Source: a virus (lineage: Duplodnaviria; Caudoviricetes). Taken from it: a stretch of DNA of 61,389 nt. The stretch is from positions 1-61,389 of the IMG/VR virus record IMGVR_UViG_3300025132_007241, one strand, 5' to 3'. The notes under the pieces are model-generated. The model was given only the letters and a program-made list of their open reading frames with translations, searched no databases and was not told the origin of the DNA. Made by a program: the position numbers and the translations under genes. Below are positions 5,111 to 60,096 of this stretch, piece after piece. Positions within the stretch are counted from its first letter, which is position 1, and each line of letters starts with the position of its first letter.

Positions 5111-5118
5111 GAATATCC

Positions 5119-11789: not shown

Positions 11790-11790
11790 C

Positions 11791-19525: not shown

Positions 19526-19543
19526 CTTTAGAGGAAAAAGACT

Positions 19544-23538: not shown

Positions 23539-23539
23539 A

Positions 23540-26120: not shown

Positions 26121-26122
26121 GA

Positions 26123-37338: not shown

Positions 37339-39132
37339 ATGACTAAAAAGATTCAATCGATTAACTACACTAGCCGCGACTTTGAATCCATTCGAAGGGA
37401 TTTAGAGAACTACGCCAAGACGTATTATTCTGACACTTATAAAGATTTTAACGAAGCGTCATTCGGCTCCCTTATGCTGGATACTGTGGCATATATCGGC
37501 GACATCCTGTCTTTCTATTTGGACTATCAAGCAAACGAATCATTTCTAGATACTGCTATTGAATATGATAATGTTATTCGCCTGGCCAAACAGATGGGAT
37601 TCAAGCTCAACACTAGCCCCTCCTCTTTTGGTCGCCTCACGTTCTACATCCAAGTGCCCGCCGTAGGAACCGGACCCAACCTTGCGTACGCGCCAGTGCT
37701 TCAAGCGGGATCGCGGTTCTCTTCAAATGGTGGTGGGTTGTATACGTTGATAGAAGACGTCGATTTTTCTCGCGCTAGCAATCAGGTGGTTGTGGGTACT
37801 GTTAACTCTTCCACCGGCGCCCCCACTAATTTTATTATTCGCGCAACAGGGATCGGCGTATCAGGACGATCAGGTTTCAAGGAATTTGAACTGGGAGCTT
37901 TCCAGCGATTCCGTTCAGTTGATCTGGGGGTAGCAAATGTTGCGGAAGTACTGTCGGTAACCGACACTGAGGGACACGAATACGTAGAAGTAGATCACCT
38001 ATCTCAAAATACAGTCTATAAAGCTATTCGCAATGTCAACACAGCCACAAATTCTACAGTCCGAAATATCTTGCGCGCTGTCCCTGTTCCGCGACGTTTT
38101 GTAGTAGATCGTCAGCGCAATCGCACATTGCTGCAATTCGGCTATGGTTCAGACTCTGAGCTGATCTCCGACTCGATTAATAACCCAGCTAACTTAGTGC
38201 TGGACCAAAACGGCAGAACCTACATCACAGATGCTGGCTTCGACCCCACAAAGTTGATGAGCACAGATAAATTTGGTATTGCCCCATCCAACACCACTCT
38301 TCGAGTAGGATACAGAGTAAACACTACCCAGGATGTAAACGCTGCTGTTAACACTATTGTGAATGTAGACCGTCCATTTTTCCGATTTACCTCTCAAGGA
38401 TCTCTTTCCCCATCTTTACGCAACACAACTCAAAATTCATTAGAGGTTATCAATGACGAGCCGTTTGTAGGCAGCATTAGTCTTCCGAACGCCGAGGAAA
38501 TTAAGCAACGAGTGTTCGGCTATTTTGCCACGCAAAACCGTGCAGTTACGACCGAAGACTATAGAACAATGGCTTATGCTATGCCAGGTGAGTTCGGCGC
38601 CGTAAAACGTGCAGCAGTGGTCCGGGATTTTAGTGAATTTCGGCGCAACCTAAACTTGTATGTGGTATCAGAAAACACTAGTGGAAAATTGGTTGCCGCC
38701 AACACAACTCTTAAAAATAACTTAAGAAATTGGATTCTTCAATATAAAATGGTGAACGATACGGTTGATATTCTTGACGCTTCGATCATCAATTTTTCGA
38801 TTGAGTACAGTGTGGTCGCGGACATCAATGCGAATAGGTTTACAGTGATCAATAGAGCCAGCGCTGCTCTCCGTGAGTATTTAGACAACAACCCCTATGA
38901 GATTGGTGAATCGATTATGATTACTGACTTTTACAAAGTTCTTCAAAAAGTAGAAGGAATTGTAGATGTAGAAAACCTAGAGGTCAAATCTGTCTCGGGA
39001 CCGCAGTACTCGGACGCAAGTTTCGATTTTGCCGGCAGTCTTGGTGCCACAGGACGCTCCATCAACATTCCGAACAATGCTGTTGTGGAACTAAAGTTTC
39101 CAAACGTAGATATTAAAGGGTCCGTTAGATAA
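37339..39132 (+). CDS. Baseplate wedge subunit, T4 gp6-like (baseplate J family)
   Basis: INYTSRDFESIR, LLDTVAY-type segment, ESFLDTA, LQFGYG, QNRAVTTEDY. Confidence 0.88.
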   Translation: MTKKIQSINYTSRDFESIRRDLENYAKTYYSDTYKDFNEASFGSLMLDTVAYIGDILSFYLDYQANESFLDTAIEYDNVIRLAKQMGFKLNTSPSSFGRLTFYIQVPAVGTGPNLAYAPVLQAGSRFSSNGGGLYTLIEDVDFSRASNQVVVGTVNSSTGAPTNFIIRATGIGVSGRSGFKEFELGAFQRFRSVDLGVANVAEVLSVTDTEGHEYVEVDHLSQNTVYKAIRNVNTATNSTVRNILRAVPVPRRFVVDRQRNRTLLQFGYGSDSELISDSINNPANLVLDQNGRTYITDAGFDPTKLMSTDKFGIAPSNTTLRVGYRVNTTQDVNAAVNTIVNVDRPFFRFTSQGSLSPSLRNTTQNSLEVINDEPFVGSISLPNAEEIKQRVFGYFATQNRAVTTEDYRTMAYAMPGEFGAVKRAAVVRDFSEFRRNLNLYVVSENTSGKLVAANTTLKNNLRNWILQYKMVNDTVDILDASIINFSIEYSVVADINANRFTVINRASAALREYLDNNPYEIGESIMITDFYKVLQKVEGIVDVENLEVKSVSGPQYSDASFDFAGSLGATGRSINIPNNAVVELKFPNVDIKGSVR

Positions 39133-40655
39133 TGTCAATTCTCAGGTATACAGCCAGCGCGGATACAACGATCACGAACGCTTTCGAAGCGAACCTCTTG
39201 ACCCGTGGCACTGGTTCCAATATGGGTTATGCAGATGCTCTAGAAGTATTCTCTATTTATGGTCAAGAGTCGGGATCTAACGGACAGTCACAAGAACTAT
39301 CCCGAATTCTTATTCAGTTTCCGATAAATCAAATCACTACAGATCGTGCAGCAGGCACGGTACCAGCTTCGGGCTCTGTGTCGTTTTATCTTAGGATGTT
39401 TAATGCTCGAACCCCGTTTACGCTTCCTCAGGACTTTAACCTTATCGTAGCGCCAGTGTCGCAGTCGTGGAACGAAGGAACAGGTCTGGATATGAACAAT
39501 TACCAAGATCTGGGTTTTTCAAACTGGGGATCAGCTAGTTCGACAGCCGGTTGGACTAGTCAGGGTGGTGATTACCTCACAGCCTCCAATTACAACGTAA
39601 GCTTCCCGCTAGGTTTTGAGGATATTGATCTGGATGTTTCCGAGATTGTTGAGCGCTGGATTACAACAGGTAATGAGTTTAATAACTATGGATTTGGCAT
39701 CCGTCTCACCGCCAGCCAGGAAGCATATTTTTCCAGCTCAGTGGGTGCCGACTCTGGAAGCGTCCTGCAGAACACGGTGGGATCGCGCCAGTCGTACTAC
39801 ACCAAGAAGTTCTTTGCACGTTCTACAGAGTTTTTCTATAAGCGCCCGGTTATCGAGGCGCGTTGGGACTCACGTATTCAGGATGATAGAGAGAACTTCT
39901 ACTATTCTAGCTCTTTGGCCCCTGCCGATGACAACTTGAATAATCTTCATATTTACAATTACATCCGCGGTCGCCTCGTGAATATTCCCCGGGTCGGAAC
40001 AAACAACCTCTTGGTATCTTTCTACTCTAGCTCCAATGGCGAGCCTACAGGGTCTAAGATCGCAATCTCAAAGGGGGGTGGCACTGTGAGCGCTGGGCAC
40101 CTGAATACCACGGCTAGCTATGTAAGCCCGGGCATTTACTCGTGCTCTGTAGCACTGACCGCTGCCTCTACTCCATTGTTAGCGATTCATGATGTTTGGC
40201 ACTCTGGTGGCGTTGAGTTTATCACTGGCTCCTTCTATCCCGAGAAGATGCCAACTTACGATTTTGCCCCTACGTTCAATTATGTGACCAGTTGCACAAA
40301 TCTTAAAAAGACATACACTAGCCAGGATACGGCTCGCTTCCGGTTCTTTGTTCGCAGCCGAGACTGGAATCCAACCCTGTATGTTAAAGCGACTGCCAAC
40401 AATCCAACAGAGATTATCCCCAGTGCGTCCTTTAGCATTGTGCGGGTAACCGATAATTTAACAGCAGTAAACTACGGAACGGGCTCGAATTACAGCACAT
40501 ACCTCTCCTACGACAAGGATGGCAACTACTTTGATCTTGATTTGGGTATGCTGGAGTCCGGATATATGTACGAAATTAAATTGTCATATCACAACGATAG
40601 CATAGGAGCATGGCAGGAACAACCACAAACGTTCAAATTTCGAGTTGAAGAATAA
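39132..40655 (+). CDS. Virion structural protein with DNRLRE/CBM96-like beta-sandwich, Ser/Thr-rich
   Basis: ADTTI, SRILIQF, SQSWNEG, DVSEIVERW, NYGFGI, RPVIEARWD. Confidence 0.65.
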   Translation: MSILRYTASADTTITNAFEANLLTRGTGSNMGYADALEVFSIYGQESGSNGQSQELSRILIQFPINQITTDRAAGTVPASGSVSFYLRMFNARTPFTLPQDFNLIVAPVSQSWNEGTGLDMNNYQDLGFSNWGSASSTAGWTSQGGDYLTASNYNVSFPLGFEDIDLDVSEIVERWITTGNEFNNYGFGIRLTASQEAYFSSSVGADSGSVLQNTVGSRQSYYTKKFFARSTEFFYKRPVIEARWDSRIQDDRENFYYSSSLAPADDNLNNLHIYNYIRGRLVNIPRVGTNNLLVSFYSSSNGEPTGSKIAISKGGGTVSAGHLNTTASYVSPGIYSCSVALTAASTPLLAIHDVWHSGGVEFITGSFYPEKMPTYDFAPTFNYVTSCTNLKKTYTSQDTARFRFFVRSRDWNPTLYVKATANNPTEIIPSASFSIVRVTDNLTAVNYGTGSNYSTYLSYDKDGNYFDLDLGMLESGYMYEIKLSYHNDSIGAWQEQPQTFKFRVEE

Positions 40656-40662
40656 TTAGAAC

Positions 40663-43600
40663 ATGAGCATTAAGAAGTATTTCGAAATTGCCGAAAACAT
40701 ACAGTCTCTCGCAAACAAGTCAGCCCAAGACATAGGGTCCGAGGTTGAGTCTGTTGGGTATCACGAGCAAGATATCATTGAGGAAGAGAGATTTATTCCC
40801 CGTATCGACTTTTCCAAGCCGGAAAACTTCGCTCGTTATGGTATGGCTGAGGAATACTATGAGTCTGCCATCAAGCGCATCTACAACACTTACCCTTATG
40901 ATGGTTCGCTGCAAGAGCGCCTCAAGTGGGTCAACGAATCGACATACCTCGACCTCTACATATATGACGAGAAATACCCCCGCACAACAGGATATATCAT
41001 TCTGTCAGCGGACGGCGCTGCCAGTCAGACTGTGGTCGACGGATACGGTCGCCCCACTACGCCAGAATACATTTATGTAAAGGGCGGACCAAACGTTAAT
41101 CCCAACGGGATGAAAAATACCGCGGTTAGCTTTACTGGATCAAATTATTACGAACCCTCCATGAACCGTGGCTCCAACCTGGAGCTAAATCTTTCATCCC
41201 AAGGCGCCTCTCTGGAGTTTTGGCTGAAAAAGTCAAGCTTCCCCGCTGTGGCAGTCGGTGCCCGCGAAGTTATTTTTGATGTCTCGACGGGCGCTGCCTC
41301 GTCCTCCGCCGGCTACGGACGTTTTCGCCTGGAGCTGAGCGGCAACTTAACTGACGGTTCGTCACCTGTCCAGCTCACCGCCATGTCCGGCGCCACTGGT
41401 ATCTACCGACAGTCTATTGCTGCGACCACGTTTACGAGCGCCTCGATAGCAGACAATAAGTGGCACCACTATGCAGTCACCGTTAAGAGCAGCGGGACAG
41501 ACCTGGTAACTAAGTTCTATGTCGATGGGTACCTTAATAAGGAAACTACCTTCAGCGGCAAGGCGGTGGCTGATCTGGATAGTACAACTCTCCGCGGCTA
41601 TGTCGGGGCTCTGTCAGCACCAGTATCAGGTGCTACCACCCCCAGCTCCACGGCTGCCGGCGATGGTAAGCTCGCTGCCTCATTGGATGAATTCCGATAC
41701 TGGAAGACGCAACGGACATCTAAAGACATAGGGAGGTTCTGGTTTACTCAAGTGGGTGGTGGCGTAAACACCGACCCAGAACCTTTTATTGAAACTCTAG
41801 AATCTGGTAACGTTGATTTGGGCGTTTACTATAAGTTCAACGAAGGCATTACGGGACAGTCGGCAACCGACAGCGTTGTTCTAGATTACTCTGGGCGCGT
41901 CTCAAATGGCGCATGGACTGGCTACAGCGCCACCGCTCGCAACACTGGTTCGGCAATTGTGTCTTCCTCCGCGGCCATCAAAGAGTTCCACGATCCAATT
42001 ATCTACTCCTTCCACCCTGATGTTGTATCTTTGAACGCGTCTCTTAAGCTTTCGGGCTCCGCTCACGATGTGACCAACAACGCGGCAGTGTACAACTCCA
42101 TCCCTGCGTGGATTACAGAAGAGGACCAGGAAGGTCAAAAGCAGCTTCTCCAGCTGACCCAGATCATGTCGAGTTATCTTGACACGGCGCAGCTGCAAAT
42201 TCAAAGCTTGAATAAACTGCGCGATAAACAATATCCTAGTGGTAGCGATAAGCCTCTCCCGTTTGCCGAGAAGCTTCTTGTTTCGCAGGGATTCATTGCC
42301 CCAGACCTTTTCTTGGATGCGGATTTACTAGAAAAGCTAGCTGATCGCAGCGAGGACCGAGTGTATGAAAAGTCTCTGCACGACATCAAGAATACGATTT
42401 ACCAGAACATCTATAATAACCTGACTTATATTTATAAGACCAAGGGCACTGAAAAATCGTTCCGTAACCTGATTCGTTGTTTTGGCGTGGACGAGGAGCT
42501 TATTAAGCTCAATATGTATGGCGACAACATCAGCTATACTTTGGAAAACAATCGCAAGAATGTAGTCGTTGCAGATAAGTTTGTTGATTTTAACACGGCA
42601 GAGAGTACAAATGCGGTGGTTTACAGCTATGCGGATGCAAGCAATGCCAATTCTGTAGGCGCAGTCCCGGTTAACTCTATCTTGACAGGGGGTTACGCAG
42701 TCACAATGGAGACTGAGATTCTCTTCCCTCGCAAGATGGAGGAAGATCGTCGCACCTATGTTAATACCAATGTTATTAGCTCTTCGTTGTTTGGCATGCA
42801 CTCTGCCAGTGCAACAGCGACGAACACCACCTGGGCAGGACCCGACACGGTTAACTTCCAGGTTTATGCCGAAAGAGACGAAATCTCCTCTACTAATGCG
42901 AAGTTTGTCCTCACAAGTTCTACAAATGGCTTAATTCCACGTCTTACATCTAGCTTAATTCAAGACCTCTACAACAACAATCGATGGAATCTGGCTGTTC
43001 GGATTAAACCAGCACAGTACCCACTTGCGGGATTGGTTAACTCCACGAGCAGCAACTACATTGTGGAGCTGCACGGCGTCCAGGCTGACTCTGGCGAAAT
43101 TCTCGAAGAGTTCACCGTGTCCCAGACCATTACGGCACCGACTCCTGGATTTGTTACAGGGTCTCGACGCGCCTACATTGGTGCCCATAGAACAAACTTT
43201 ACGGGCGCGGTACTGCAAAGTTCTGATGTCAAGGTAAACGCATGCCGTTTCTGGCTTGACTACCTCGATGATGACACGCTCCGTGCGCATATTTTAGATA
43301 CCGAAAACCATGGTCCACTACAGCCACACCTTTATGCTTTTGGATTTAATACCTGGGCCCAATTCGGCGATATCAAAAAAGCGGACACACTAGTCTTTAA
43401 CTGGGAGTTCCTACAGAACACAGGCTCTAATGCGTTAGGTCAGTTCTTAGTTAATGACCTAAGCTCAGGATCTGCTAACCTGACGCGCTTTGGATCGCTG
43501 GGCAATATTTTAAACAAGCAATATACGGCTAGTGGCTCGTTCTTTAAGGTGTCCTCGACAGACGCAATCGATAAAGATTTTGTAGTATCCTCCAAGCTGA

Positions 43601-46600
43601 ATCTTCCTGAGCATGTAGAATCCGTCGATATGGTACAGGTGGTTAGCCAGGAAGACACCGAAATCTTCACCTCCGAGTCACGACCAATAAACTACTACTA
43701 CGCTTTTGAAAAAAGCATGTATCAGGTTATCTCGACCCAAATTATCAATCACTTTGCTAACTTGAAAGACTTTCATAACCTGATTGGCGAGCCTGCGGAG
43801 AAATATCGCCCTGATTACAAGAAGATGCAAAAGCTGCGCCAACGCTTTTTTGAGACAGTACGCAACACCGAACTAGATTTTGATAAATTCTACGAGTACT
43901 ACAAATGGTTCGACAGCTCACTATCAGTGATGCTTGCGCAGCTCGTCCCAGCTTCAGCTGATTTTGCTGATAATATTTTAAACGTAATAGAAAATCATGT
44001 CTTGGAGCGCCCAAAGTATCGTCACAAGTTCCCGTTTATCGAGAAGATTGGTACACCGGACCCACTCAGCACAACAGCGCCAGCCGGAATGCCGACTAGC
44101 AATAACATCTATCCGATGTCAAGCCCAGATGGCAACTTTGGCTCAAACGATCGGTTTACCAAGCGCCAGCTTGGTTCTTCAAATCCCCCCGCGCAAAACG
44201 ACTGGAAAAAATTCCATGCTCCTGAAGATGGCAAGGCTAATAAAAATGCATACTGGCATCGCTATCGCGAAGAGCCAGTGGACTCGCCACGCAAAGACCT
44301 CATGGAGGCTATCAAGCAGACTTATAACCGTCGCTTAGGCTCGCCAGTCAAGTTCACTGCTGATGCTTCTAGTGTGGTCGCCGGCGTCGGGCGTCACCCA
44401 AACAACCGACCTGATTATGTTTTTGCTGCCACTGCGCCCTATGGTCCAACAGTTCCGGACACCAACATTCCAAAGAACGTAATGTTCGGCTATGGTGCTG
44501 ATGTCGAGGAGCTGATACCCACCAGTGATGAGTATTTCCCATCCCAGAAGCAGCGTTTAGGCTTTGGTCTTGATCCAGGGATTAACCATGACCCAGGTGA
44601 AATCAAGATGGATGGTAACATCTATGCACCGTTTAGCCTTTACAGTTCCTCCGTAAAAACGGGATACAACGACAACATCGTCCGCAAGTTTAAGTCTGGC
44701 TCCATGGTTACTAACCTTCACAATGATTTTGTTGGCAGCCGAGACATTCCAATGCAGGGACCATTCCCGGAGAAGTTTGTTGGAGGGCGCTTCTATCGAC
44801 ATACAGAGGTCAACCCGGGAACAGATACCCGGGAAAACCGTGCTGAAGGTTTCCGGATTGAGGTCGGCTCCCTTGCCCTACCATCGGTAGGTTATCTTGG
44901 AGTAGTGCCGCCCAACTATCCTTTTGGTTCCTCCCCTCCTGGCTCAGCGCCGTCTGGCTTCCTGCCTCGCTTGCCTACCGCTCAACGCCTTCGCGACGAG
45001 AGCGCAAAGCGTCCCGTAAACATCAAAAACATTCTGATGACGACAGCCTCAGCCGGCGTGCGGCTCTCGGGTACTATTACCCATGGCGCCATCGGCAACT
45101 ACCAGAAGAACTATCAAGTCATCAACACTGCAGGACGCATGGTTAATGATCCATTCTTTAAGGATCAGACATTCAAGTTTGCACCCTATCCGGAAACTCT
45201 CGCAACACGCGGTCGGTTCCCGCTCTATCTCGCCCCACCACTGGTTGGCAAATCCTATCTCTTCGACGGGTCTAATGACTTTGCAAAATCTAAAGATAAA
45301 ACTGCCAGTGACTGGAATACACTGATTGGTTCTTCCTCAGCCGGCGGCACCAAAGCTTACAGCATGTCCGTGTGGATATATGTAAATAATTGGGCTGGTG
45401 GTGATTCCGTTATGTCAATTGGACGATCCACCTATCTTCCTGGTGGTCGTGAAATCAACCTCTATGATGATGGCGGTGGTGATCTCGGAATTAGAGGAAT
45501 CGTGGGAGGTCTTAACTATCGAAGCTCAGACACAGCGATGACCACAGGGCGCTGGTATCATCTCACAGTTACCTATGCCGGCATGGCAGCAGGCTACGGC
45601 GGCACCACTGTCTTGCCTCTTATTTATGTTAACGGCGCCGACGACGGCGATAGTGGCAACACAAGCACACTAAGTCATGTTCAAGGAATTGGTACAACAG
45701 CTCTCCAACTAGGAAATTCCTCGACTCCAAGTAAGGGCTTCTTTGATGGGTACATGTGTGACGTCGCAGTGTACAACAAGCAACTTTCCGCGACGGAAGT
45801 GACAGAGCTTTATAATAGCGGACAGCGTTTCAATCCCCTAAACGCCACCTTCAGTAGCAACGTCATCACTTATCTTCCGATGGGCAACATGTCAACAGAT
45901 AGTGCAACAGTCATTACTGACCTTAAGGGTTTTGACAATCTAATTGGCGTAGACTTTACTTCGCCAATTAAGGAGGTTAGCCCTTCTGCACTGAGTCGCA
46001 CCGACTTCTCCGCCCTCGGCGGAGGTGGACTACCCGAAACGACCGCCAACACTGGGGGTGCCCTCAACTACATGATCCCACAGCGAACTGGTTCGGATTC
46101 TCAGGACACAGTTATTGTTTGTCGCTATGCAGGATCAGGCTATGAAGTCATGTCTCTTGGATACATGGATCCAGCGCACACTGAGCTGTCGGTATACAAT
46201 GCATCTCCATACCACAATCTTTCAATTATTGATCATGGTCTTTCGGGTTCTGCGTCTGTAGATCCCATCGCGGCCAAGACCATTACCGTGGTAGACCAGA
46301 TCGACAAGAACCGCGGTCTAGACCAGCGCGCTACTCTTCATTGCGGCAAGTTTGGCGCCGACTCGGCATATGGCACTGTCACGGCTGATACTTATGTAAC
46401 TGTTCCGTCGTGGCACAAGACCAACAGCAACCGCCGCCGCCGCATGGATAATAATGCTCTAGAGAACACGATGCCAGCCGGCAATCACACCGCGTCCGTC
46501 TATGATAACCTTTACGTCCAGCACGCGATCCCTCAGTCCACTCAGCAGTACGCTTGGGTAACTGGGTCGCTAATCCAAGGAAAAGCCATTCTCGGGCTTA

Positions 46601-49600
46601 CTAGACCCCTCTGCTTTAGTGCTTCGGTCCTTAACGAGTTAGTCACAAGTGGCGCTGTTCCCAATGCGGATTTTGTAGGTCTTCGACGCTATGTCCTTGA
46701 TCCAGTGAGTGCTTCAAGTCACATTCTTGGCTTCCCCCTAACTGCCGTACCAAGTTCGTCTTACTATAACTCTGATCTGGGCTTGCTCATGGCACCCACT
46801 CACAAGCGTTCCTTTGCAACGTCCTCGTACCTTAACACACTTATTAACAACCGCGGCGGTGCGTTTGGATATTCTAGCTGGAAGCAGCTCCGCGTAGGAG
46901 AAGGACCAGTCGCTCGCACTCTCCGTAAGGCTAACAAGATTGGGACTGTGGTGGCACCACCAACCATCCTTAATAAAATCGCAGGCAAAACAGTAGGAGC
47001 GATCACTCCAACACAGCCAAACACATTTGCGGATTACTTCGAGGCTCCAATCGCCAAGAATGCCTCGCCAATCAACTTCTATTTTGAGGACAACACAGAA
47101 AATTCAGACCCTGCAAACAACATCAATCTGACAGTTCCATACCGCAACTCGTTTGAGTACTTCACCAACAATGGCTTGAACAACCGCCTAGGACTAGAGA
47201 TAGACCTTGACACTCGCCGCGCGTATAATTCTGCCGTTGACTTTACATTGAAGAGTAATCTTAGTGTTATCGTGAATTATTCCGAAAGAGTATATCCTGC
47301 CGGAAGCAATGCGTATAAGCCAGAGGTTCGAGGACGTCAGAACTATACAATCAACAACATTTGGAATAAAGATCGTACGACTCGTAGCACGCCTTTGGGC
47401 GGCAAAGCCGATATCTTTAATTTGGGAATCATCGCCTCTGCGAGCATTTGGCCATTGGATGCACACCTTAATTTTACTATTACATCGTCAATCACCGCGT
47501 CCGATGGATCCGGCATCCTGCAGAATTCGTACAGCCGTTTCTACCATACTACCACAGCCTCTATCCAGCTAGCTCCCACATACGTTCAGCGCATCCCCAT
47601 GGGTTCAATTGGGGGACGTTCCGTCTTTGCGGGAGATACCCCGTGGTTAGCTCCAGCACAAGCCGGTAAAGATCCATACCAAGATTACACAACCTTCGCT
47701 GAGCGCATTCGTCTTGTAGGAAAGGATTATTCGATTCTACCGGAGTTCCGAATTAGTGAGCTGATGGAAACATATGTTATCCAAAAAGACGGAGACTTCC
47801 TAGCCAACATTAATAACGTCCTTACCCTAACAGGAGCCGCTACTCCCAACTCCTCAGAAGATGCGTTCTATCGAACATATACAAATGGGGATTTCCTGCG
47901 TTACTTTGGCGTTATTGACGACGATTTGAACGAGCAGCGCTCAGAAGATCTTAAGATTTTGCGCGACAAGGTTGTGCTTAAGTGCGATGCACTTGTAAAA
48001 TTCCTTCCGTATAAGGGTTTTTACCCCGCAGAGCGAACGCTAGAACTGTCGACATTGTTCTCCCAGTCATTTGGGAGAGCCTACTATAGGCGTTCCGGAG
48101 CGGACAATAAGATTATGCGCACCTTCTTCGAGCCGCTATATTCTCCAGGGATTATGTACAACACTATCAAATCCGGATTAGCAGTCAGCAACTTTATCAT
48201 CACTCGCGCTAATGCTAACCTGGTTCTGCCGCCCCCCTCTGCTTCGGTGAGCACCAATATGAGTGGACACTATAACGGCATCAATGTTGGACCACAAATT
48301 GTAATTTCTGGATCTGGCAAACAGTTCCCCACTATGGGCGGCGGCTCAGCTGGTCTGGGATGGCAGGTAACAAGGGTTCCTTTCGAAGCGTTACAACGTC
48401 CCGGAAGCTTCTTCCACGAAGATAATATAAGCGAAGTAGCAACGTCAGGCTCAACAATAGGAAATTCGTATATATATGACACGGGAATTTTCTCCTCCTC
48501 GCTTTACCTGGGTAATGCTCTCAATATTCTTCCTCGCCTAGACAAAGAAAGTAGCATACTCTATGAATTGGCTATGGATAATTATCTCTGTGAATCCAAC
48601 AGAATATTTATGGGATCTCTAGCCGGCTTTGAATCAAAGCGAGAAGAGTTATTCGAACCCGTAACATCGGGGTCCGTTTACGAGATGACCTTCAAGCTGT
48701 ACCGCACCCAGAATCTGGAGGGTTCCAGCCCAACTGTCGATCACAGCCGCTTTGAGATGTACGAGAACATCACTGCTTTTGGACCTTCCCTGGGATCATC
48801 TACTTCTCTTAGTTCACAACCTGACTTTTCACATCTTACCCCTCCCTACTATAACGGCTCTGCAAAAGTCACCTTTTACTATACCGCAAGTTTCTCTGGT
48901 CGCCCGACGCTAGATGAAATTTTTGCCAACACTAATTTGCTGTTTGATAGATTTGGAGTTACTAATACATTTGATTCTCTGCAGGGAACAACGCCTCTGA
49001 CTCCTTATGGAAAAAGCGATAGAATAATGCAAATAGATCAATCGTTTAACTTGCTGGGAATCGTGCCCACGGTACCGCCCGGGACAACAGCTCAGAAAAA
49101 CCAGTGGCTAATCCAGTCTAAGTACGAGTGCCCGATTTTAAACTTTGCCAACGTAAGTCAGTCCTTTGCTCCTGCCACAGTGGGCATTGGCTCAATAACC
49201 CCCGCCACCCTTAATACCAGAGGAATGTGGCATCAGTACGGCAGTCTTCCAAGTGGTTCCGGCATCGGCGTCTTCGCGGAGATTTCCAACATAGAAGGAG
49301 ATAATCCCTCGTTGGCAGAAATTGTTGGGTTTGATACTGGAGTTGCGAAGCGTATTGGTATTGTCAATCAGGAATACTCACTAGAAGAAGCCATTGTAGC
49401 TATTCCCTATAAACAAACTAACAACCGTCGCAAGTTTATTAAGTTCACCGACGAGACAAAACGCTCCGAGACTTACCAGAAGCTTACTAGTGCCATGCAA
49501 AAGTATGTTTTCCCACCGCGGTTTGATTTTATGGAATTTGATTCGGTCGATCCTGTTCTGATGTATGTTTTCGAATTCAGTGCGAAGTTGTCGCAGCAAG

Positions 49601-50247
49601 ACCTTAGCGACATCTGGCAAAACCTACCACCTTCAATCAATGAAAAATTTGAGACCAAAGAAGCAGTGGTTGAGGAAAGAGAATTGTTAGACCTCATTTT
49701 GGATAAAGATGCAGATACACACTGGATGGTTTTCAAGGTTAAGAGGAAGGGTACACGCAACTACGAGAAGTACCGACGATCGCTTGTTTCCAACGCTGAT
49801 CTTAGCTCCTTCCCAGACACATCTCGTACTCCGTACAGTTATAATTGGCCTCATGACTATTTTTCTCTGGTTGAGCTGGCGAAGATGGACGAAAAGGTGC
49901 AGTACGCATCGCGAGATCTTGCTCCACCAGCACCCACTCGAACTGGTGATGACACACCTCCGCCCGCCATTGCAAGCGTCGGCGCAAGCACATCGAGAGC
50001 ACGCCCAGCGACATCAGGTGCTCCAGGCTCCGCTGCATCATTAGCCAACCCGGAGCAGGCTGTTACCACGAGGACACCACAGACACAAACTGCAACCGCA
50101 CCGACCACCACCAGGGTCCAACAAACTGCAGCCACTACCACGGCTGCTGCCACCCAGGCGCCTCAAACTACTACAACTCAGGCACCACGCACAACTCGTA
50201 CCACTAGAGGTCGCGGCTCCGGCGGCGGAAGAGGAGGTAGCTACTAA
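40663..50247 (+). CDS. Giant baseplate/tail protein (3194 aa) with LamG/concanavalin-A-like domains and a gp7/P2 gpI-like KGT motif
   Basis: LamG motifs (SLEFW..WHHYAVT..FYVDG..LDEFRYW; MSVWIY..WYHLTVT..IYVNG..MCDVAVYNKQLS), YKTKGTEKSFRNLIRCFG, T/A/P/Q-rich tail. Confidence 0.8.
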   Translation: MSIKKYFEIAENIQSLANKSAQDIGSEVESVGYHEQDIIEEERFIPRIDFSKPENFARYGMAEEYYESAIKRIYNTYPYDGSLQERLKWVNESTYLDLYIYDEKYPRTTGYIILSADGAASQTVVDGYGRPTTPEYIYVKGGPNVNPNGMKNTAVSFTGSNYYEPSMNRGSNLELNLSSQGASLEFWLKKSSFPAVAVGAREVIFDVSTGAASSSAGYGRFRLELSGNLTDGSSPVQLTAMSGATGIYRQSIAATTFTSASIADNKWHHYAVTVKSSGTDLVTKFYVDGYLNKETTFSGKAVADLDSTTLRGYVGALSAPVSGATTPSSTAAGDGKLAASLDEFRYWKTQRTSKDIGRFWFTQVGGGVNTDPEPFIETLESGNVDLGVYYKFNEGITGQSATDSVVLDYSGRVSNGAWTGYSATARNTGSAIVSSSAAIKEFHDPIIYSFHPDVVSLNASLKLSGSAHDVTNNAAVYNSIPAWITEEDQEGQKQLLQLTQIMSSYLDTAQLQIQSLNKLRDKQYPSGSDKPLPFAEKLLVSQGFIAPDLFLDADLLEKLADRSEDRVYEKSLHDIKNTIYQNIYNNLTYIYKTKGTEKSFRNLIRCFGVDEELIKLNMYGDNISYTLENNRKNVVVADKFVDFNTAESTNAVVYSYADASNANSVGAVPVNSILTGGYAVTMETEILFPRKMEEDRRTYVNTNVISSSLFGMHSASATATNTTWAGPDTVNFQVYAERDEISSTNAKFVLTSSTNGLIPRLTSSLIQDLYNNNRWNLAVRIKPAQYPLAGLVNSTSSNYIVELHGVQADSGEILEEFTVSQTITAPTPGFVTGSRRAYIGAHRTNFTGAVLQSSDVKVNACRFWLDYLDDDTLRAHILDTENHGPLQPHLYAFGFNTWAQFGDIKKADTLVFNWEFLQNTGSNALGQFLVNDLSSGSANLTRFGSLGNILNKQYTASGSFFKVSSTDAIDKDFVVSSKLNLPEHVESVDMVQVVSQEDTEIFTSESRPINYYYAFEKSMYQVISTQIINHFANLKDFHNLIGEPAEKYRPDYKKMQKLRQRFFETVRNTELDFDKFYEYYKWFDSSLSVMLAQLVPASADFADNILNVIENHVLERPKYRHKFPFIEKIGTPDPLSTTAPAGMPTSNNIYPMSSPDGNFGSNDRFTKRQLGSSNPPAQNDWKKFHAPEDGKANKNAYWHRYREEPVDSPRKDLMEAIKQTYNRRLGSPVKFTADASSVVAGVGRHPNNRPDYVFAATAPYGPTVPDTNIPKNVMFGYGADVEELIPTSDEYFPSQKQRLGFGLDPGINHDPGEIKMDGNIYAPFSLYSSSVKTGYNDNIVRKFKSGSMVTNLHNDFVGSRDIPMQGPFPEKFVGGRFYRHTEVNPGTDTRENRAEGFRIEVGSLALPSVGYLGVVPPNYPFGSSPPGSAPSGFLPRLPTAQRLRDESAKRPVNIKNILMTTASAGVRLSGTITHGAIGNYQKNYQVINTAGRMVNDPFFKDQTFKFAPYPETLATRGRFPLYLAPPLVGKSYLFDGSNDFAKSKDKTASDWNTLIGSSSAGGTKAYSMSVWIYVNNWAGGDSVMSIGRSTYLPGGREINLYDDGGGDLGIRGIVGGLNYRSSDTAMTTGRWYHLTVTYAGMAAGYGGTTVLPLIYVNGADDGDSGNTSTLSHVQGIGTTALQLGNSSTPSKGFFDGYMCDVAVYNKQLSATEVTELYNSGQRFNPLNATFSSNVITYLPMGNMSTDSATVITDLKGFDNLIGVDFTSPIKEVSPSALSRTDFSALGGGGLPETTANTGGALNYMIPQRTGSDSQDTVIVCRYAGSGYEVMSLGYMDPAHTELSVYNASPYHNLSIIDHGLSGSASVDPIAAKTITVVDQIDKNRGLDQRATLHCGKFGADSAYGTVTADTYVTVPSWHKTNSNRRRRMDNNALENTMPAGNHTASVYDNLYVQHAIPQSTQQYAWVTGSLIQGKAILGLTRPLCFSASVLNELVTSGAVPNADFVGLRRYVLDPVSASSHILGFPLTAVPSSSYYNSDLGLLMAPTHKRSFATSSYLNTLINNRGGAFGYSSWKQLRVGEGPVARTLRKANKIGTVVAPPTILNKIAGKTVGAITPTQPNTFADYFEAPIAKNASPINFYFEDNTENSDPANNINLTVPYRNSFEYFTNNGLNNRLGLEIDLDTRRAYNSAVDFTLKSNLSVIVNYSERVYPAGSNAYKPEVRGRQNYTINNIWNKDRTTRSTPLGGKADIFNLGIIASASIWPLDAHLNFTITSSITASDGSGILQNSYSRFYHTTTASIQLAPTYVQRIPMGSIGGRSVFAGDTPWLAPAQAGKDPYQDYTTFAERIRLVGKDYSILPEFRISELMETYVIQKDGDFLANINNVLTLTGAATPNSSEDAFYRTYTNGDFLRYFGVIDDDLNEQRSEDLKILRDKVVLKCDALVKFLPYKGFYPAERTLELSTLFSQSFGRAYYRRSGADNKIMRTFFEPLYSPGIMYNTIKSGLAVSNFIITRANANLVLPPPSASVSTNMSGHYNGINVGPQIVISGSGKQFPTMGGGSAGLGWQVTRVPFEALQRPGSFFHEDNISEVATSGSTIGNSYIYDTGIFSSSLYLGNALNILPRLDKESSILYELAMDNYLCESNRIFMGSLAGFESKREELFEPVTSGSVYEMTFKLYRTQNLEGSSPTVDHSRFEMYENITAFGPSLGSSTSLSSQPDFSHLTPPYYNGSAKVTFYYTASFSGRPTLDEIFANTNLLFDRFGVTNTFDSLQGTTPLTPYGKSDRIMQIDQSFNLLGIVPTVPPGTTAQKNQWLIQSKYECPILNFANVSQSFAPATVGIGSITPATLNTRGMWHQYGSLPSGSGIGVFAEISNIEGDNPSLAEIVGFDTGVAKRIGIVNQEYSLEEAIVAIPYKQTNNRRKFIKFTDETKRSETYQKLTSAMQKYVFPPRFDFMEFDSVDPVLMYVFEFSAKLSQQDLSDIWQNLPPSINEKFETKEAVVEERELLDLILDKDADTHWMVFKVKRKGTRNYEKYRRSLVSNADLSSFPDTSRTPYSYNWPHDYFSLVELAKMDEKVQYASRDLAPPAPTRTGDDTPPPAIASVGASTSRARPATSGAPGSAASLANPEQAVTTRTPQTQTATAPTTTRVQQTAATTTAAATQAPQTTTTQAPRTTRTTRGRGSGGGRGGSY

Positions 50248-51179: not shown

Positions 51180-51181
51180 AA

Positions 51182-53803: not shown

Positions 53804-53805
53804 TC

Positions 53806-56643: not shown

Positions 56644-56654
56644 AGACATTTAAG

Positions 56655-56662
56655 ACTATTTA
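56655..56662 (+). promoter_or_regulatory. Candidate phage late-promoter motif ACTATTTA
   Basis: Intergenic, 18 nt before ATG 56681, upstream of GAGG SD. Confidence 0.5.
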
Positions 56663-56680
56663 TATGAAGAGGACAATAGC

Positions 56681-57622
56681 ATGGGATTCTTAGATAACTC
56701 TGGCGATATTATTTTAGACGCCGTTTTGACTGACCTGGGTCGAAAAAGACTCGCCGAGGGCAACGGTCGTTTTAGCATTGCAAAGTTTGCGATGGGCGAC
56801 GACGAAATCGATTATGGACTGTATGACAAGAACAACACTAGCGGCTCCGCCTACTACGATGTAAGCATTCTGCAGACGCCAGTTCTGGAAGCATTCACCA
56901 ATAACATGTCAAGCATGAAATCGCGACTCATGTCCTATGCCCAGAATGACCTCCTCTATTTACCGGTCGTAGAAGTCTTTAATATTGGCGACTCGGCACT
57001 CAACTCTAGCCTTTCCAGCTATCTGGTACTAGTTGACGAAGAAACAGTCAATTCTCTCACCACCGATAACAACTCTCTTGATGCGGGTCTTCTCAACGGC
57101 TTCCGTCCGGACCTGGGTGATAATCTTTTACGCGCCGACCAGGGACTCAACACCGGCGAACTCTCCTCTGACTCGGTGATTAACCCAACACTTCTTGAGA
57201 CCCAGTATTTTATTCAGATAGATAATCGCCTAGGATTTCTCTCGCCTCAGCAGGGTGGCGATGCCAGCACATCCGCGGCGTTTAACCCCACATCAATTGA
57301 TGATGATAACATTGCCACATATGTCTTCTCGATGGATGATGGTACCCGCGTGCTCTCCTCGATTGCCCCGGGCGCTGCATCACAGATTGCTGGTCCCCGA
57401 GGAAGCCGCGTGAGCTTCAAGGTTGGATCGTCCCTAAGCACAAGGACTAGTACCTTCTTGTTCGATCAGTTGGGGAGCCAAGGCACAGCTGCAATTACAA
57501 GCGGAACCAAGACCCTGGCAGCTGCCAATTATAAGTTCATCGATACCACAGTGCGAATCTCTGGTGTATCGACTGGATACACATTGGACGTCCCCTTCCG
57601 CTTTGTAAAGAAGACTAGTTAA
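56681..57622 (+). CDS. Putative baseplate/tail-collar protein
   Basis: MGFLDN..DAVLTDLGRKRLAEG..FSIAKFAMGDDEIDY. Confidence 0.65.
   Translation: MGFLDNSGDIILDAVLTDLGRKRLAEGNGRFSIAKFAMGDDEIDYGLYDKNNTSGSAYYDVSILQTPVLEAFTNNMSSMKSRLMSYAQNDLLYLPVVEVFNIGDSALNSSLSSYLVLVDEETVNSLTTDNNSLDAGLLNGFRPDLGDNLLRADQGLNTGELSSDSVINPTLLETQYFIQIDNRLGFLSPQQGGDASTSAAFNPTSIDDDNIATYVFSMDDGTRVLSSIAPGAASQIAGPRGSRVSFKVGSSLSTRTSTFLFDQLGSQGTAAITSGTKTLAAANYKFIDTTVRISGVSTGYTLDVPFRFVKKTS
57614..57621 (+). promoter_or_regulatory. Candidate phage late-promoter motif ACTAGTTA
   Basis: 15 nt before ATG 57637, overlapping the upstream stop. Confidence 0.45.
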
Positions 57623-57636
57623 TAAAGGAAACAATA

Positions 57637-58764
57637 ATGGCCACTTCATTCAAAACTTTTGACCCCACAAAAGACTCGGTTGTAACCAGGAACCTCCTTC
57701 ACGAGGCTATCCCGATCACAGGCACGATTGTATCAGGAACGTACGCAGACAACAACATCAAGAACTATGCCCATGGCATGTTCCAGTCGGTATATGACTA
57801 TCCGTTCCTCAGCTCCTCCGCCAACCATATCTTTGATATCACACTCGGATTCCCAGCGGCATCGTCGCTTTCGCGGTCCTATGGTACCACGACGCAGCAG
57901 TCAAAGAAAATTAACCTCTACAACCAGATGGCTCAGGTCCTTGCGGGATATGACGCCAATGGTGCTATTCGACGCTTTGATGAGGATGGGGACCTCACAG
58001 GCGGCACGAAGATTGATGAGGCTTACTTCATTAACTTCACGCGACTTCTTTCCAAGGACGAGGTCAAGAAAGGCAGCTTCTCGCTTAAACTCAACGTTGG
58101 CGCCCCGGGATTCTCGGGATACACCAGTCTTTCTAAAGATACGCTCACAATCACTGACAAGAGTGGATCCAACGGCTACAAGGTTAACTCTCCAGCAGGC
58201 GAGTATGGCGTACTCTTCGCCACAGGTTCTGGTAAAGTCTGGAATCAGTCGGCTGGTGGTTACAACGCCAAGTGGGATCGGGGCTATGCTAAGGTCGGTT
58301 TGATTTATTATCAGGCTGGCATTGTTGTATTGAGTTCCTCTGTTTTTGGAAGCCTACTATCCTCTTCGGTTAGTATGAGTCGTACGGAAGGTGTTCGCGG
58401 TCCAGCGATCATGCTCAGTGCGAGCGTCGACGGTAACTTTATTAGTTCGTCAATTTCTGGAAACTGCGATAATCTTCGCCACCGCGTGCAGAATATCTCC
58501 TTCAACAACTCTACAGAATTGAACTCCACAGTTTACTTCTGCCGAGCCAACAACACGGACTTTAACTACTCCAGTAACCCAACCTACTTGAGTTCTAGCA
58601 AGATTGTTGTTAAGAATAACTCTCAGGATGTACCAGTATCGTATGTGACTTCGGTTGGTCTGTACTCTGGAGATAATGAGTTGCTGGCTGTTGCTAAACT
58701 CTCTGAGCCTCTGAAGAAGGACCCAACAACGGAGTTCACTATTAGAGTCCGTCTAGACTACTAA
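57637..58764 (+). CDS. Putative baseplate/tail-collar protein (paralogue of 58786..60096)
   Basis: C-terminal YSSNPTY..YVTSVGLY..NELLAVAKLSEPLKK..RVRLDY. Confidence 0.65.
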   Translation: MATSFKTFDPTKDSVVTRNLLHEAIPITGTIVSGTYADNNIKNYAHGMFQSVYDYPFLSSSANHIFDITLGFPAASSLSRSYGTTTQQSKKINLYNQMAQVLAGYDANGAIRRFDEDGDLTGGTKIDEAYFINFTRLLSKDEVKKGSFSLKLNVGAPGFSGYTSLSKDTLTITDKSGSNGYKVNSPAGEYGVLFATGSGKVWNQSAGGYNAKWDRGYAKVGLIYYQAGIVVLSSSVFGSLLSSSVSMSRTEGVRGPAIMLSASVDGNFISSSISGNCDNLRHRVQNISFNNSTELNSTVYFCRANNTDFNYSSNPTYLSSSKIVVKNNSQDVPVSYVTSVGLYSGDNELLAVAKLSEPLKKDPTTEFTIRVRLDY

Positions 58765-58785
58765 TGAAGATGATGTGGTCATGGC

Positions 58786-60096
58786 ATGCCGTACTATAAG
58801 TTTAAGAAAAATGAGATCTATAGAAACAATCTAAAGACTTACCCTAGTATTAAATTTGTAACTTATAGTGGCTCGTCATTTTACAACGACACTCCTAATA
58901 TTTCTGGCGCCTTCGCTAGCCCAATTCGACTAACTGATTCAAGCCATATCTCGCTCTATGAGATGAATGTGGACAGGATCAGTTCATCCACGGGGCGCTT
59001 CATCGGCTCTGCACCGGCAGGTCCCACTGCCGTTCCAGACAACGGATTAATTTACTCCTATGTTGTGAAGAACGGGTCACGCATGGGCTTCCGCACTCTG
59101 GCGTCGACCGCCTCATGGAATTCTTCTGAGTACGGGCAGGTAATGTTTGGGAATTTCCCCTACACTGCCAGCATTTCGAAAGAATTTTATCACGCGGAAA
59201 CCCCCAGATCCGGGACGACCGCCGCAGCTCCGGGTGATGGTTATAAGTCAGGGTCTGTCTCGCACTTGCTGGCACTGAAGAACACAATTAACTATTACGA
59301 GTACGTCAACCCCGACTTCCAGTACTCCTCGTCAGTTAGAGATTTTAACTCTATTGATGTGGGGCTCATCAATGTGCCCACCATTTTCTATGGGTCGTCG
59401 ATTAAAAAGGGCACTATTGATCTTAAGTATTATATCACCGGTACACTTTTGGCCCGTGCTCAAGACAAATATAAAAATGGTCTCTTGTATTCAACATATG
59501 GAGTTATGTCGGGAAGCGTTATCGGACTAGCTTTGTACAACGAGGGCTTCCTGATCCTTACCAGCTCTGCTAATCTTACAGTGGCTAGTGCCCCGCATAA
59601 AGACTATTACACTAGTTCCGCTGGACGAACGAGTCCTCGCTGGACCTTCTTTGGGCAGTCTACTCGCTCTGTTCTGACATCTTCTGCTGATGGACTTAGT
59701 CCAGTCGTCAGCACAGCTTATCGCCCCGCCCCTGCTAGTGCATCTTTTATAATGGATATGAGCGGTACCACCACTACCCAGACGATTACGATGTTTGCTA
59801 ACGCCAAAAAGGGAGCACTTAACCAATCGAATAATCCAACATTCCTTCAATACTCTACCAACAATTACGCAGGTAGCGGGAGCAAGTCCTACATTGAGAA
59901 TGATAAGCTGCAAATTAAGAATGTTGTCAGTTCAGCGTACGCTGACCCAACTGGATCCTTTGAAAAAACAACCTACATCTCCAAGGTGGGTATCTACGAC
60001 GAGAACCAGAACCTGATTGCAATCGCTAAATTAGCTACCCCCGTGAGAAAAACAGTTGAGAGAGATTTTACTTTTAAGATCAAGCTCGATCTCTGA
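58786..60096 (+). CDS. Putative baseplate/tail-collar protein
   Basis: C-terminal SNNPTF..YISKVGIYDENQNLIAIAKLATPVRK..KIKLDL. Confidence 0.65.
   Translation: MPYYKFKKNEIYRNNLKTYPSIKFVTYSGSSFYNDTPNISGAFASPIRLTDSSHISLYEMNVDRISSSTGRFIGSAPAGPTAVPDNGLIYSYVVKNGSRMGFRTLASTASWNSSEYGQVMFGNFPYTASISKEFYHAETPRSGTTAAAPGDGYKSGSVSHLLALKNTINYYEYVNPDFQYSSSVRDFNSIDVGLINVPTIFYGSSIKKGTIDLKYYITGTLLARAQDKYKNGLLYSTYGVMSGSVIGLALYNEGFLILTSSANLTVASAPHKDYYTSSAGRTSPRWTFFGQSTRSVLTSSADGLSPVVSTAYRPAPASASFIMDMSGTTTTQTITMFANAKKGALNQSNNPTFLQYSTNNYAGSGSKSYIENDKLQIKNVVSSAYADPTGSFEKTTYISKVGIYDENQNLIAIAKLATPVRKTVERDFTFKIKLDL

Follow-up and report, generated by a model that had tools for sequence, protein, structure and literature searches.

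Why is one short tripeptide scattered through some virion proteins of a phage and nearly missing from others of the same gene module, and what might it be for? The question is raised by the 61,389-base IMG/VR record IMGVR_UViG_3300025132_007241 (the window, meaning the whole stretch of DNA analysed), in which all long open reading frames (ORFs) lie on the plus strand. The right half of the window encodes the baseplate and fibres of a phage with a contractile tail, and four of its proteins are rich in the motif [ST][GAS]S, that is, serine or threonine, a small residue (glycine, alanine or serine), then serine. Our analysis indicates that, with its hydrophobic flanking residues (Phi), Phi-[S/T]-[G/A/S]-S-Phi is a surface motif that is under selection and specific in direction, and that it is borne by outward-facing virion proteins across a large marine clade of Far-T4-like myoviruses, the clade name being taken from PMC4360716. 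The four proteins and the neighbour that serves as internal negative control are the following.

37339..39132, plus strand: gp6-like (Baseplate_J) wedge protein of 597 amino acids (aa), PHROG 219 and PF04865; internal negative control with 0 motifs.
39132..40655, plus strand: 507-aa protein directly downstream of the gp6-like wedge gene, with several beta-sandwich domains; 16 motifs.
40663..50247, plus strand: 3194-aa giant fibre or baseplate-distal protein with two Laminin_G_3 stretches (PF13385, E 9.9e-28); 42 motifs along its length.
57637..58764, plus strand: 375-aa protein, paralogue of the 436-aa protein; 8 motifs.
58786..60096, plus strand: 436-aa protein, whose C-terminal domain is also found in Rhodothermus phage RM378 and Microcystis phage Mel-JY01 (tblastn); 13 motifs.

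Overlapping motifs were counted in 49 ORFs, and the expectation was the mean of composition-preserving shuffles. The 507-aa protein exceeded its shuffle mean of 3.2-3.3 about fivefold (z 7.4), and an excess was also seen in the 3194-aa protein (13.4-13.6 expected, z 8.1), the 375-aa protein (3.0 expected, z 2.95, p 0.009) and the 436-aa protein (3.6 expected, z 5.2). Precisely these four, out of 49 ORFs, reached p<0.01, and pooled they held 79 motifs vs 23.3 expected (z 11.9). The gp6-like protein had 0 vs 1.8 expected, a 1661-aa protein 4 vs 2.7, and ten other proteins of the same structural module, some of them equally rich in serine (the 313-aa protein is 12% Ser), totalled 10 vs 15.1. A first-pass annotation of this DNA had counted by hand 16, about 40, 8 and 13 copies in the four proteins, none in the gp6-like protein and about 3 in the 1661-aa protein, with a rough expectation of about 3 for the 507-aa protein. 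These figures were accurate, as were its statements that the enrichment is selective and that the copies are dispersed along the proteins rather than tandem.

The excess holds when shuffling is confined to blocks of 10, 20, 40 or 100 residues, which rules out local low complexity as its cause, and it also holds against a first-order Markov expectation (79 vs 47.4). The 79 instances are encoded by many codon combinations; the signal therefore lies at the protein level, and a nucleotide-level repeat is ruled out as well. Among the tripeptides with a meaningful expectation, the leading ones were SGS (18 vs 4.0), TAS (13 vs 2.9) and TGS (12 vs 3.1), along with SAS (11 vs 3.8) and SSS (17 vs 5.6).

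In the four window proteins, the near-miss patterns [ST][GAS]T (23 vs 18.1), [^ST][GAS]S (111 vs 99.5) and [ST][GAS][^S] (205 vs 196), in which ^ marks excluded residues, were flat, and a bulky middle residue was disfavoured, [ST][^GAS]S being depleted (42 vs 66 expected). A hydrophobic or aromatic residue is favoured directly before the motif and V, A, N, F or I directly after it, with [FYLIV][ST][GAS]S at 38 vs 6.7 and [ST][GA]S[VAFILY] at 29 vs 5.0. The tripeptide first put forward was thus confirmed, yet the motif is wider than it was stated to be, since a flanking hydrophobic residue sharpens the signal. Other sequons were not enriched in the window proteins: D[ST][AILVMT] stood at 18 vs 16.1 and N-x-S/T at 50 vs 52.9, and SG.G and [ST]P showed no excess either.

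The motif also has a direction. In the fibre modules of four lineages (Flavobacterium phage vB_FspM_immuto, hereafter immuto, Mel-JY01 and two uncultured relatives), T[GAS]S reached 2.8-4.0 times and S[GAS]S 2.8-3.6 times its expectation; S[GAS]T lay at 1.1-1.3 times and T[GAS]T at 0.5-1.5 times. With a hydrophobic flank the excess rose to 5.2-8.1 times. RM378 is directional too: Phi-T.S, in which the dot stands for the small residue, occurs 30 times vs 6.7 expected, and Phi-S.T 5 times vs 6.7. Over whole proteomes (ORFs of at least 400 aa), the comparison of T.S with S.T was inconsistent (Mel-JY01 59 vs 105, immuto 65 vs 60), so the asymmetry is claimed for fibre modules and not for whole proteomes. 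What reverses the genome-wide ratio of Mel-JY01 is a single 805-aa ORF (PP395634.1, 635-3052) in which S[GAS]T occurs 76 times and S[GAS]S 35 times; its product evidently consists of tandem Ser/Gly/Thr repeats, which differ from the dispersed motif.

Conservation was followed in homologues of the 507-aa protein, which are abundant: 4,698 were recovered at E<=0.001 among 7,998 candidates scored, many of them from marine surveys. An IMG/VR scan gave 54 loci with homologues at 31-83% identity, and 44 distinct sequences were aligned once duplicates had been dropped. Enrichment reached z>=4 in 47 of the 54 and z 2-4 in 5 more, with none in the other 2 (L049 and L050), and a further scan found it in 19 of 21 additional loci. 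The motif columns are conserved, with substitutions that stay within the class. Position 193, for example, is TAS in 19 sequences, SSS in 6, TSS in 4, TGS in 3 and SAS in 2; position 299 is SSS in 17, SGS in 11 and SAS in 1; and position 450 is TGS in 39 of 44. A motif of the window protein was kept as a motif in 62% of homologue cells, vs 28% for near-miss control tripeptides; in the 436-aa protein, where the motif columns are likewise conserved in the alignment, the figures were 43% and 15%. Homologues at <=55% identity retain 26% of the window sites, yet most still total 10-14 per protein, which means that sites turn over while their number is kept. These alignments support purifying selection on the motif as a class.

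Family totals, from which duplicates and ORFs shorter than 40% of the query length were dropped, repeat the selectivity seen in the window. Motifs numbered 553 vs 132.5 expected in the 507-aa family and 1031 vs 349.9 in 28 ORFs homologous to the 3194-aa protein. The corresponding totals were 24 vs 81.9 in 45 homologues of the gp6-like protein, 2 vs 13.8 in the family of the 327-aa protein and 62 vs 57.8 in that of the 1661-aa protein. Homologues of the 375-aa protein hold 6-11 vs 1.7-3.0 and those of the 436-aa protein 6-13 vs 1.1-3.7; counts in homologues of the 313-, 873- and 945-aa proteins are at expectation. A proteome-wide depletion outside the enriched proteins is not claimed, as the totals for the remaining proteins are biased downward by the prior removal of the top-ranked rows; the low totals given for the gp6-like and 327-aa proteins come from families fixed in advance by homology.

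A genome-wide scan of two complete relatives (191 and 186 kb, with 166 and 175 ORFs) placed virion proteins only at the top of the ranking in both, including homologues of the four window proteins. The others were the tail sheath (13 vs 4.9 and 10 vs 4.1), the major head protein (6 vs 1.8), a neck/adaptor-like protein (5-6 vs 1.5), a 443-aa protein (7 vs 1.3) and a 1381-aa fibre (34 vs 8.8). The restriction to four proteins is therefore exact for the window but too narrow for the relatives, where the sheath, major head and neck proteins and further fibres carry the motif too. In 3 of 3 sheaths the motifs lie N-terminal of the conserved C-terminal core (residues 102-685 of 1075, 155-621 of 982 and 62-393 of 709), and this conserved domain is presumably the inner layer, by T4 gp18. 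In the head protein they fall at residues 115-279, largely within a stretch that cannot be aligned to other T4-type head proteins, in or near a variable insertion. The idea that the motif marks exposed proteins is thus supported in the relatives by fibres, sheath regions outside the C-terminal core, a head insertion and a neck protein.

The 1381-aa protein, encoded by the relative G002 at 72123-76268 (12126-16268 of locus L080, minus strand), opens with a module of about 160 aa in duplicate; in the relative G004 this module is encoded by a small gene of its own. From residue 444 to residue 1166 the 1381-aa protein has a motif every 16-20 residues or so, a spacing which suggests that the fibre is a solenoid and that each rung bears one motif.

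An AlphaFold2 model of the 507-aa protein (mean predicted local distance difference test score, pLDDT, 79.6), for which 36 of the 44 distinct sequences were aligned, shows beta-sandwich domains strung together; in Foldseek searches they resemble a jelly roll of the carbohydrate-binding module (CBM) type and immunoglobulin (Ig)/FN3 domains. The Foldseek matches were generic beta-sandwiches (CBM, Ig/FN3, complement-like) with template-modelling scores of at most 0.27 on the query, and they pointed to no specific baseplate homologue. Of the 16 motifs, 4 are in coil, 7 at strand ends and 2 in helical turns; the other 3 lie wholly inside strands, contrary to the expectation of surface loops. In this model, then, the motif has no single local geometry. 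The model of the 436-aa protein (mean pLDDT 47.6, 13-row alignment) was too poor for use.

If a phage enzyme acts on this motif, the left half of the window offers candidates. It encodes PhoH-PIN, a PD-(D/E)XK nuclease, two adjoining GT4-type glycosyltransferases and about 18.5 kb of nucleotide-sugar genes, which are followed by genes of a conserved backbone.

5077..6369, plus strand: GT4a, GT4-family glycosyltransferase (PF00534, 48 bits vs a cut-off of 26.4), the most conserved gene of the locus.
6370..7623, plus strand: GT4b, divergent GT4-like protein that always adjoins GT4a.
7624..26122, plus strand: variable sugar island of about 18.5-18.7 kb, assigned with Pfam and NCBIfam.
26123..27361, plus strand: right-bounding backbone genes, ORFs of about 85, 105 and 231 aa; relatives share the 231-aa protein at 52-64% identity.

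Every complete or near-complete relative (5 of 5) encodes a GT4a with 57-62% identity; the best solved relative of this protein is chlorovirus B736L (3oy2, E 1.1e-10). GT4b falls below the Pfam cut-offs for GT4 (PF20706 24.7 vs 26, PF00534 19.9 vs 26.4) and has no significant solved relative, its single match (E 0.04) being unrelated; it was found in 9 of 10 contigs from further relatives and in immuto, Mel-JY01 and RM378. The E-x7-E signature is a hallmark of the GT4 family, and it is invariant in 7 of 7 aligned sequences of each protein, as E298-x7-E306 in the C-terminal Rossmann domain of GT4a and as E280-x7-E288 in GT4b, so both look catalytic. By sequence comparison, the pair are the only glycosyltransferases conserved across the motif-bearing genomes. 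The open frame of GT4b is longer in two relatives (698 aa in G016, behind L018, and 667 aa in G011, behind L044, vs about 420 elsewhere), which suggests a fusion with a neighbouring gene.

Homologues of GT4a occur in 11 cultured-phage records, the closest being immuto, Mel-JY01 and RM378. Immuto and Mel-JY01 preserve the order PD-(D/E)XK nuclease, GT4a, GT4b; in RM378 the two GT4 genes are likewise neighbours. These three phages, which have the same GT4 pair, also have the motif in syntenic fibre genes. When all tripeptides were ranked without bias in the genes after the baseplate wedge, SGS and TGS were in the top four in each of the four lineages named above (immuto, Mel-JY01 and two uncultured relatives), and TAS, SAS and/or SSS in the top 12 in 3 of 4. 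Phage T4 shows no enrichment (36 vs 36.9 in 27 ORFs of at least 400 aa), and cyanophage P-SSM2 almost none (1.19 times overall).

Eight genomes share the synteny PhoH...PD-(D/E)XK-GT4a-GT4b-[island]-backbone-baseplate, with the island at one fixed insertion point between GT4b and the ORF of about 85 aa. They are given below by length of the island, then by observed/expected motifs in the homologue of the 507-aa protein, then by the same ratio in the adjoining N-terminal ORF that resembles the 3194-aa protein.

Window: 18.7 kb; 16/3.3; 42/13.6
G004: 18.4 kb; 15/3.7; 52/13.7
G010: 13.9 kb; 15/3.8; 11/3.9
G001: 8.7 kb; 10/2.5; 11/5.4
G002: 7.2 kb; 17/3.2; 15/4.6
G008: 6.1 kb; 8/3.3; 14/5.2
G003: 3.5 kb; 9/3.8; 38/17.7
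G006: 0.65 kb; 2/2.5; 15/12.7

The seven island-bearing genomes (3.5-18.7 kb) show 2.1-5.3 times enrichment in these homologues. In G006 the island site is empty, because the 85-aa and 105-aa backbone genes directly follow GT4b, and its five homologues total 23 motifs vs 19.1 expected with no T.S/S.T asymmetry. The residues at its motif columns are unrelated and often charged (KKS, KES, EEQ, EAT, IGT), so the motif positions tolerate change and are probably exposed. The motif is thus over-represented and conserved and lies, as far as the sheath and head positions and these substitutions indicate, on accessible surfaces. Since immuto and Mel-JY01, which are more distant, have both island and motif, the simplest reading is a joint loss in the lineage of G006. 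We looked for another empty site. In 71 GT4b loci that extend at least 3.5 kb downstream of the gene, the backbone genes were never within reach, and among 48 loci with the 231-aa backbone gene an island shorter than 10 kb was found in only 2, with no further empty site.

A second lineage without the motif is represented by the 18-kb IMG/VR contig L335, which a search with the G006 protein brought up and whose homologues of the 507- and 3194-aa proteins hold 3 vs 2.5, 3 vs 4.0 and 1 vs 0.9. Its protein is only 35% identical to that of G006, and the contig ends 1.2 kb upstream of the gene, short of any island.

The island of the window contains an ADP-heptose module (HldD, HldC, HldA), a module for sugars linked to thymidine diphosphate (RmlA/RmlB-like proteins and a DegT aminotransferase), a PseF/KdsB-like cytidylyltransferase, a B12 radical-SAM enzyme, a methyltransferase, several epimerases, and weak GT-D-like and MptE/Maf-like proteins. 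Five of its ORFs have no Pfam family at E<=0.001 (7587-8459, 11791-12519, 17866-18846, 23540-24247 and 24244-25056), and the same is true of the backbone ORF 26666-27361 and of 3727-4338, which has a sub-threshold match only. Islands share almost no gene content from genome to genome, in the manner of a bacterial O-antigen locus. The median matched fraction by tblastx was 0.29 for the island vs 0.51 for the structural flank, a rough sign of variability that is inflated by paralogous epimerases. All seven island-bearing genomes, and G006 too, have a member of the family to which the 85-aa ORF belongs. One cassette of the window (9313-11093: HldC, HldA, a 109-aa ORF and a cupin) is found in the same order in P-SSM2, at about 238.2-239.9 kb of NC_006883. 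Its proteins are 44-63% identical, far closer than anything else common to both phages, which suggests that sugar cassettes are exchanged horizontally between unrelated marine myoviruses.

We infer that the motif is a candidate acceptor for O-linked glycosylation of serine; this is the best reading of the data, and we propose it tentatively. The serines of Phi-[S/T]-[G/A/S]-S-Phi would be O-glycosylated in the cytoplasm of the infected cell, before assembly, with sugars activated by the hypervariable island, which separates the conserved GT4 pair from the baseplate module. The outcome would be a glycan coat on the virion, whose chemistry would differ among strains.

Several observations weigh against this proposal. 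G006, which lacks the motif, has GT4b with its E-x7-E and 77 of 83 invariant columns, together with a GT4a fragment, so that the GT4 pair is insufficient and may have another acceptor. G006 is also a single lineage on a contig estimated to be 23% complete; an island could lie elsewhere in the genome, and motif and island may have been lost together through common descent and not for a functional reason. The 7 island-bearing genomes share no island gene family other than the edge ORF of about 85 aa. The heptose cassette is held in common with P-SSM2, which has almost no motif enrichment. The sugars of the island (heptose, an ulosonic-acid-type sugar activated with cytidine monophosphate (CMP), 6-deoxy-amino sugars) are also building blocks of lipopolysaccharide, and the island could thus remodel the host envelope. 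The motif, with its hydrophobic flanks and small middle residue, would also suit an amphipathic beta-strand that presents both hydroxyls on one face, a purely structural reading. Finally, Pelagibacter phage HTVC008M has an excess of 1.7 times overall and of 2.8 times for Phi-[ST][GAS]S, and its five largest structural proteins hold 41 S[GAS]S vs 13.0 expected; yet it has no GT4a homologue, and none of its matches to Glycos_transf_1 or Glycos_transf_2 rises above cut-off. An obvious glycosyltransferase is therefore not needed for part of the S-small-S signal to arise.

These points also decide what became of the role first assigned to a phage glycosyltransferase. The motif is present in every examined relative with the GT4 pair and an island and is not enriched in T4, but G006 keeps GT4b without it. 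Enrichment accordingly does not track the pair alone. It goes with the island in 8 of 8 syntenic genomes, although only one of these is a negative, and HTVC008M has a partial signal without a clear glycosyltransferase. The pair as reader of the motif is doubtful, being contradicted by one genome. The excess in HTVC008M, a phage in which such enzymes were not found, is not equal to that of the clade but weaker and less directional (T.S 1.47 times vs S.T 1.52 times).

The best-surviving alternative, which we nevertheless consider rather unlikely, is that the motif is structural and unmodified. Phi-[ST]-small-S-Phi would build the exposed edges of beta-sandwiches and beta-helices and be kept for folding, solubility or low stickiness, and the sugar island and GT4 pair would then serve elsewhere, for instance on the host envelope or on DNA. 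The hydrophobic flanks and small middle residue speak for it, as do the motifs inside and at the ends of predicted strands, the rung-like spacing in the 1381-aa fibre of G002, the weaker excess of HTVC008M and the retention of the pair in G006; moreover, 'GT4 in conflict systems' is among the best Pfam models for the pair, whose neighbours are a nuclease and PhoH. However, the local geometry of the motif is heterogeneous, its preference for T-x-S over S-x-T has no obvious structural reason, and the beta-rich fibres, baseplate and decoration proteins of T4 show no enrichment. The homologues in G006 keep their length and similarity with charged residues at the motif columns, which indicates that the fold does not need it. 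Equally Ser-rich neighbours in the module are not enriched, and the number of sites is maintained while their positions change.

A further alternative shares with our preferred reading, glycosylation of the serines, the idea of a modified motif but assigns it to another reader or another chemistry, the GT4 pair being uninvolved. The reader would be an island-encoded or unrecognised transferase, perhaps one of the weak MptE/Maf-like or GT-D-like proteins or of the family-less ORFs, and the group could be a phosphate, an acyl group, phosphoglycerol or a phosphosugar. G006, which separates the pair from the motif, favours this, and so do the two small cytidylyltransferase-like genes of the window, the MptE-like match two genes from the PseF-like cytidylyltransferase and the seven left-half ORFs without a Pfam family. 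Against it, the motif is the same in all the island-bearing genomes although their islands have no gene family in common, and the scanned ORFs yielded no match to a kinase or acyltransferase family. We regard this alternative as improbable.

Chance, composition, low-complexity sequence or a nucleotide-level repeat is excluded: the four proteins are indeed Ser-rich (9.6-13.6% Ser), but the excess survives composition-preserving and 10-residue local shuffles, its instances are dispersed and diverse in codons, and it recurs in homologues at 31-83% identity and in independent lineages.

Among known systems, the GT4 enzymes GtfA/GtfB and SdgA/SdgB O-GlcNAcylate (add N-acetylglucosamine to) serine in the Ser-rich or Ser-Asp repeats of Gram-positive adhesins. 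They may be the nearest mechanistic analogues of the phage pair, which falls outside their families. GT4 fold, cytoplasmic action, serine acceptors of the S-small-S type and adjacent gene pairs are points of likeness. The similarity is nevertheless that of GT4 proteins in general (19.9 bits to the SdgA model vs a cut-off of 800; E 0.0024 to the GtfA structure 4pqg), and no GtfA or GtfB model was among the NCBIfam matches of the window proteins. Unlike GtfA/GtfB, in which one partner is catalytic and the other inactive, both phage partners keep E-x7-E; the phage acceptors are dispersed in folded beta domains rather than in long tandem repeats, and there is no accessory Sec system.

Enzymes of the Aah/TibC family, the bacterial autotransporter heptosyltransferases (BAHT), heptosylate autotransporters using ADP-heptose. 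The window likewise encodes a cytoplasmic supply of ADP-heptose (HldD, HldC, HldA), the motif offers many Ser sites on beta-rich surface proteins, and the fibre of one relative has the regular spacing of about 16-20 residues. In contrast to that family, the heptose module is absent from most relatives that still have the motif. No BAHT/GT9 heptosyltransferase was found among the 30 left-hand ORFs scanned, of which the family-less ones may yet encode one. Maf (MptE-like) proteins glycosylate flagellin with CMP-nonulosonic acids, at sites with no known strict sequon but in a hydrophobic context. A weak MptE-like protein is encoded near the PseF-like cytidylyltransferase (75 bits vs a cut-off of 205.7), but its match lies below cut-off (PF01973, 26.5 bits vs 34.6) and these genes are not conserved in the relatives; scans of the left-half ORFs with Pfam and NCBIfam detected no NeuB/PseI-type synthase. 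The general O-glycosylation sequon of Bacteroidetes, D-(S/T)-(A/I/L/V/M/T), is read in the periplasm, and phage structural proteins do not pass through the periplasm. It resembles the present motif in its three residues, in its occurrence on many proteins and in belonging to the phylum of the host of one cultured relative, but, as said above, it is not enriched here.

Virion O-glycosylation itself has a precedent in mycobacteriophages, in which glycans are reported at the C-termini of capsid and tail-tube proteins (Freeman et al., 2023, Cell Host Microbe, as described in PMC12619734). As in that account, glycosyltransferases are encoded by the phage near structural genes and the exposed virion proteins would be the ones to bear glycans, the sites here being candidates. 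The present case differs from that description in that the tripeptide is dispersed through fibres, sheath and a head insertion, beside a large hypervariable nucleotide-sugar island, and also in that the phages are myoviruses whose cultured relatives infect Flavobacterium, Microcystis and Rhodothermus. The first-pass annotation knew of no description of such a sequon, and none turned up in our full-text literature searches, which covered main texts and also found no description of glycosylated virions in this phage group. The main text of the Far-T4 genomics paper (PMC4360716) contains no terms for glycosylation, heptose, lipopolysaccharide or Bacteroidetes.

The remaining content of the window is consistent with the identity of its module and of its source. 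Two further features of the right half are listed here.

27642-29072, plus strand: endolysin-like protein of the right-half module.
36928..37326, plus strand: gp25-like baseplate wedge protein (PF04965, E 1.1e-10; PHROG 261).

The presence of the gp25-like protein fixes the module as the baseplate of a contractile tail. After the 3194-aa protein come five further proteins, including the paralogous 375- and 436-aa proteins, and then a Holliday-junction resolvase. The two paralogues have in common a C-terminal domain of about 100 residues, that of the 375-aa protein aligning to the 436-aa protein at E 2e-9. No Pfam or PHROG family matched the 507-aa protein. No cultured phage close at the DNA level was found by megablast, and none by tblastn with the 507-aa protein. 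The C-terminal domain of the 436-aa protein and GT4a do match RM378, Mel-JY01 and immuto, and the head protein of the relative G004 matches the head proteins of the same three phages at 37-50%. On these shared structural and GT4 genes, the source phage is assigned to the Far-T4-like marine myoviruses, relatives of RM378.

Three genes of the left half deserve mention in their own right. The product of 705-1493 has a DDAH/amidinotransferase fold and no homologue among nine genomes compared. At 2142-3464, PhoH is fused to an N-terminal PIN domain and is about 60% conserved in relatives. The 203-aa ORF at 3727-4338 is kept beside PhoH in relatives at 36-43% identity; its sub-threshold Pfam match is to the anthrax lethal-factor N/C-terminal domain model (E 8.8e-4, 19.5 bits vs a cut-off of 27.4), and its product is probably a small zincin-like or an unrelated protein.

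Taken at its broadest, the proposal is that an abundant group of ocean phages has a general O-glycosylation of its own, in which every outward-facing virion protein carries the sequon, the GT4 pair lays down a core, a hypervariable, horizontally exchanged island acts as a 'serotype locus' that makes the glycan coat diverse, and the sequon decays once the island is lost. This picture is possible, although we would not call it probable. If the serines do carry glycans, the motif would be the first defined O-glycosylation sequon for a phage, and glycosylated virion proteins could be predicted from sequence alone. Virion glycosylation would then belong to the core traits of a marine phage group that is very abundant, the 507-aa protein having more than 4,600 homologues in metagenomes; it would account for nucleotide-sugar islands that reach about 19 kb and vary in the manner of bacterial O-antigen loci, and it would bear on virion stability, adsorption, grazing and the stickiness of particles in the sea. 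The cultured relatives immuto, Mel-JY01 and RM378 make the glycosylation reading directly testable. If the serines are unmodified, the motif would still be an unexplained, strongly selected and directional surface feature of these virions.

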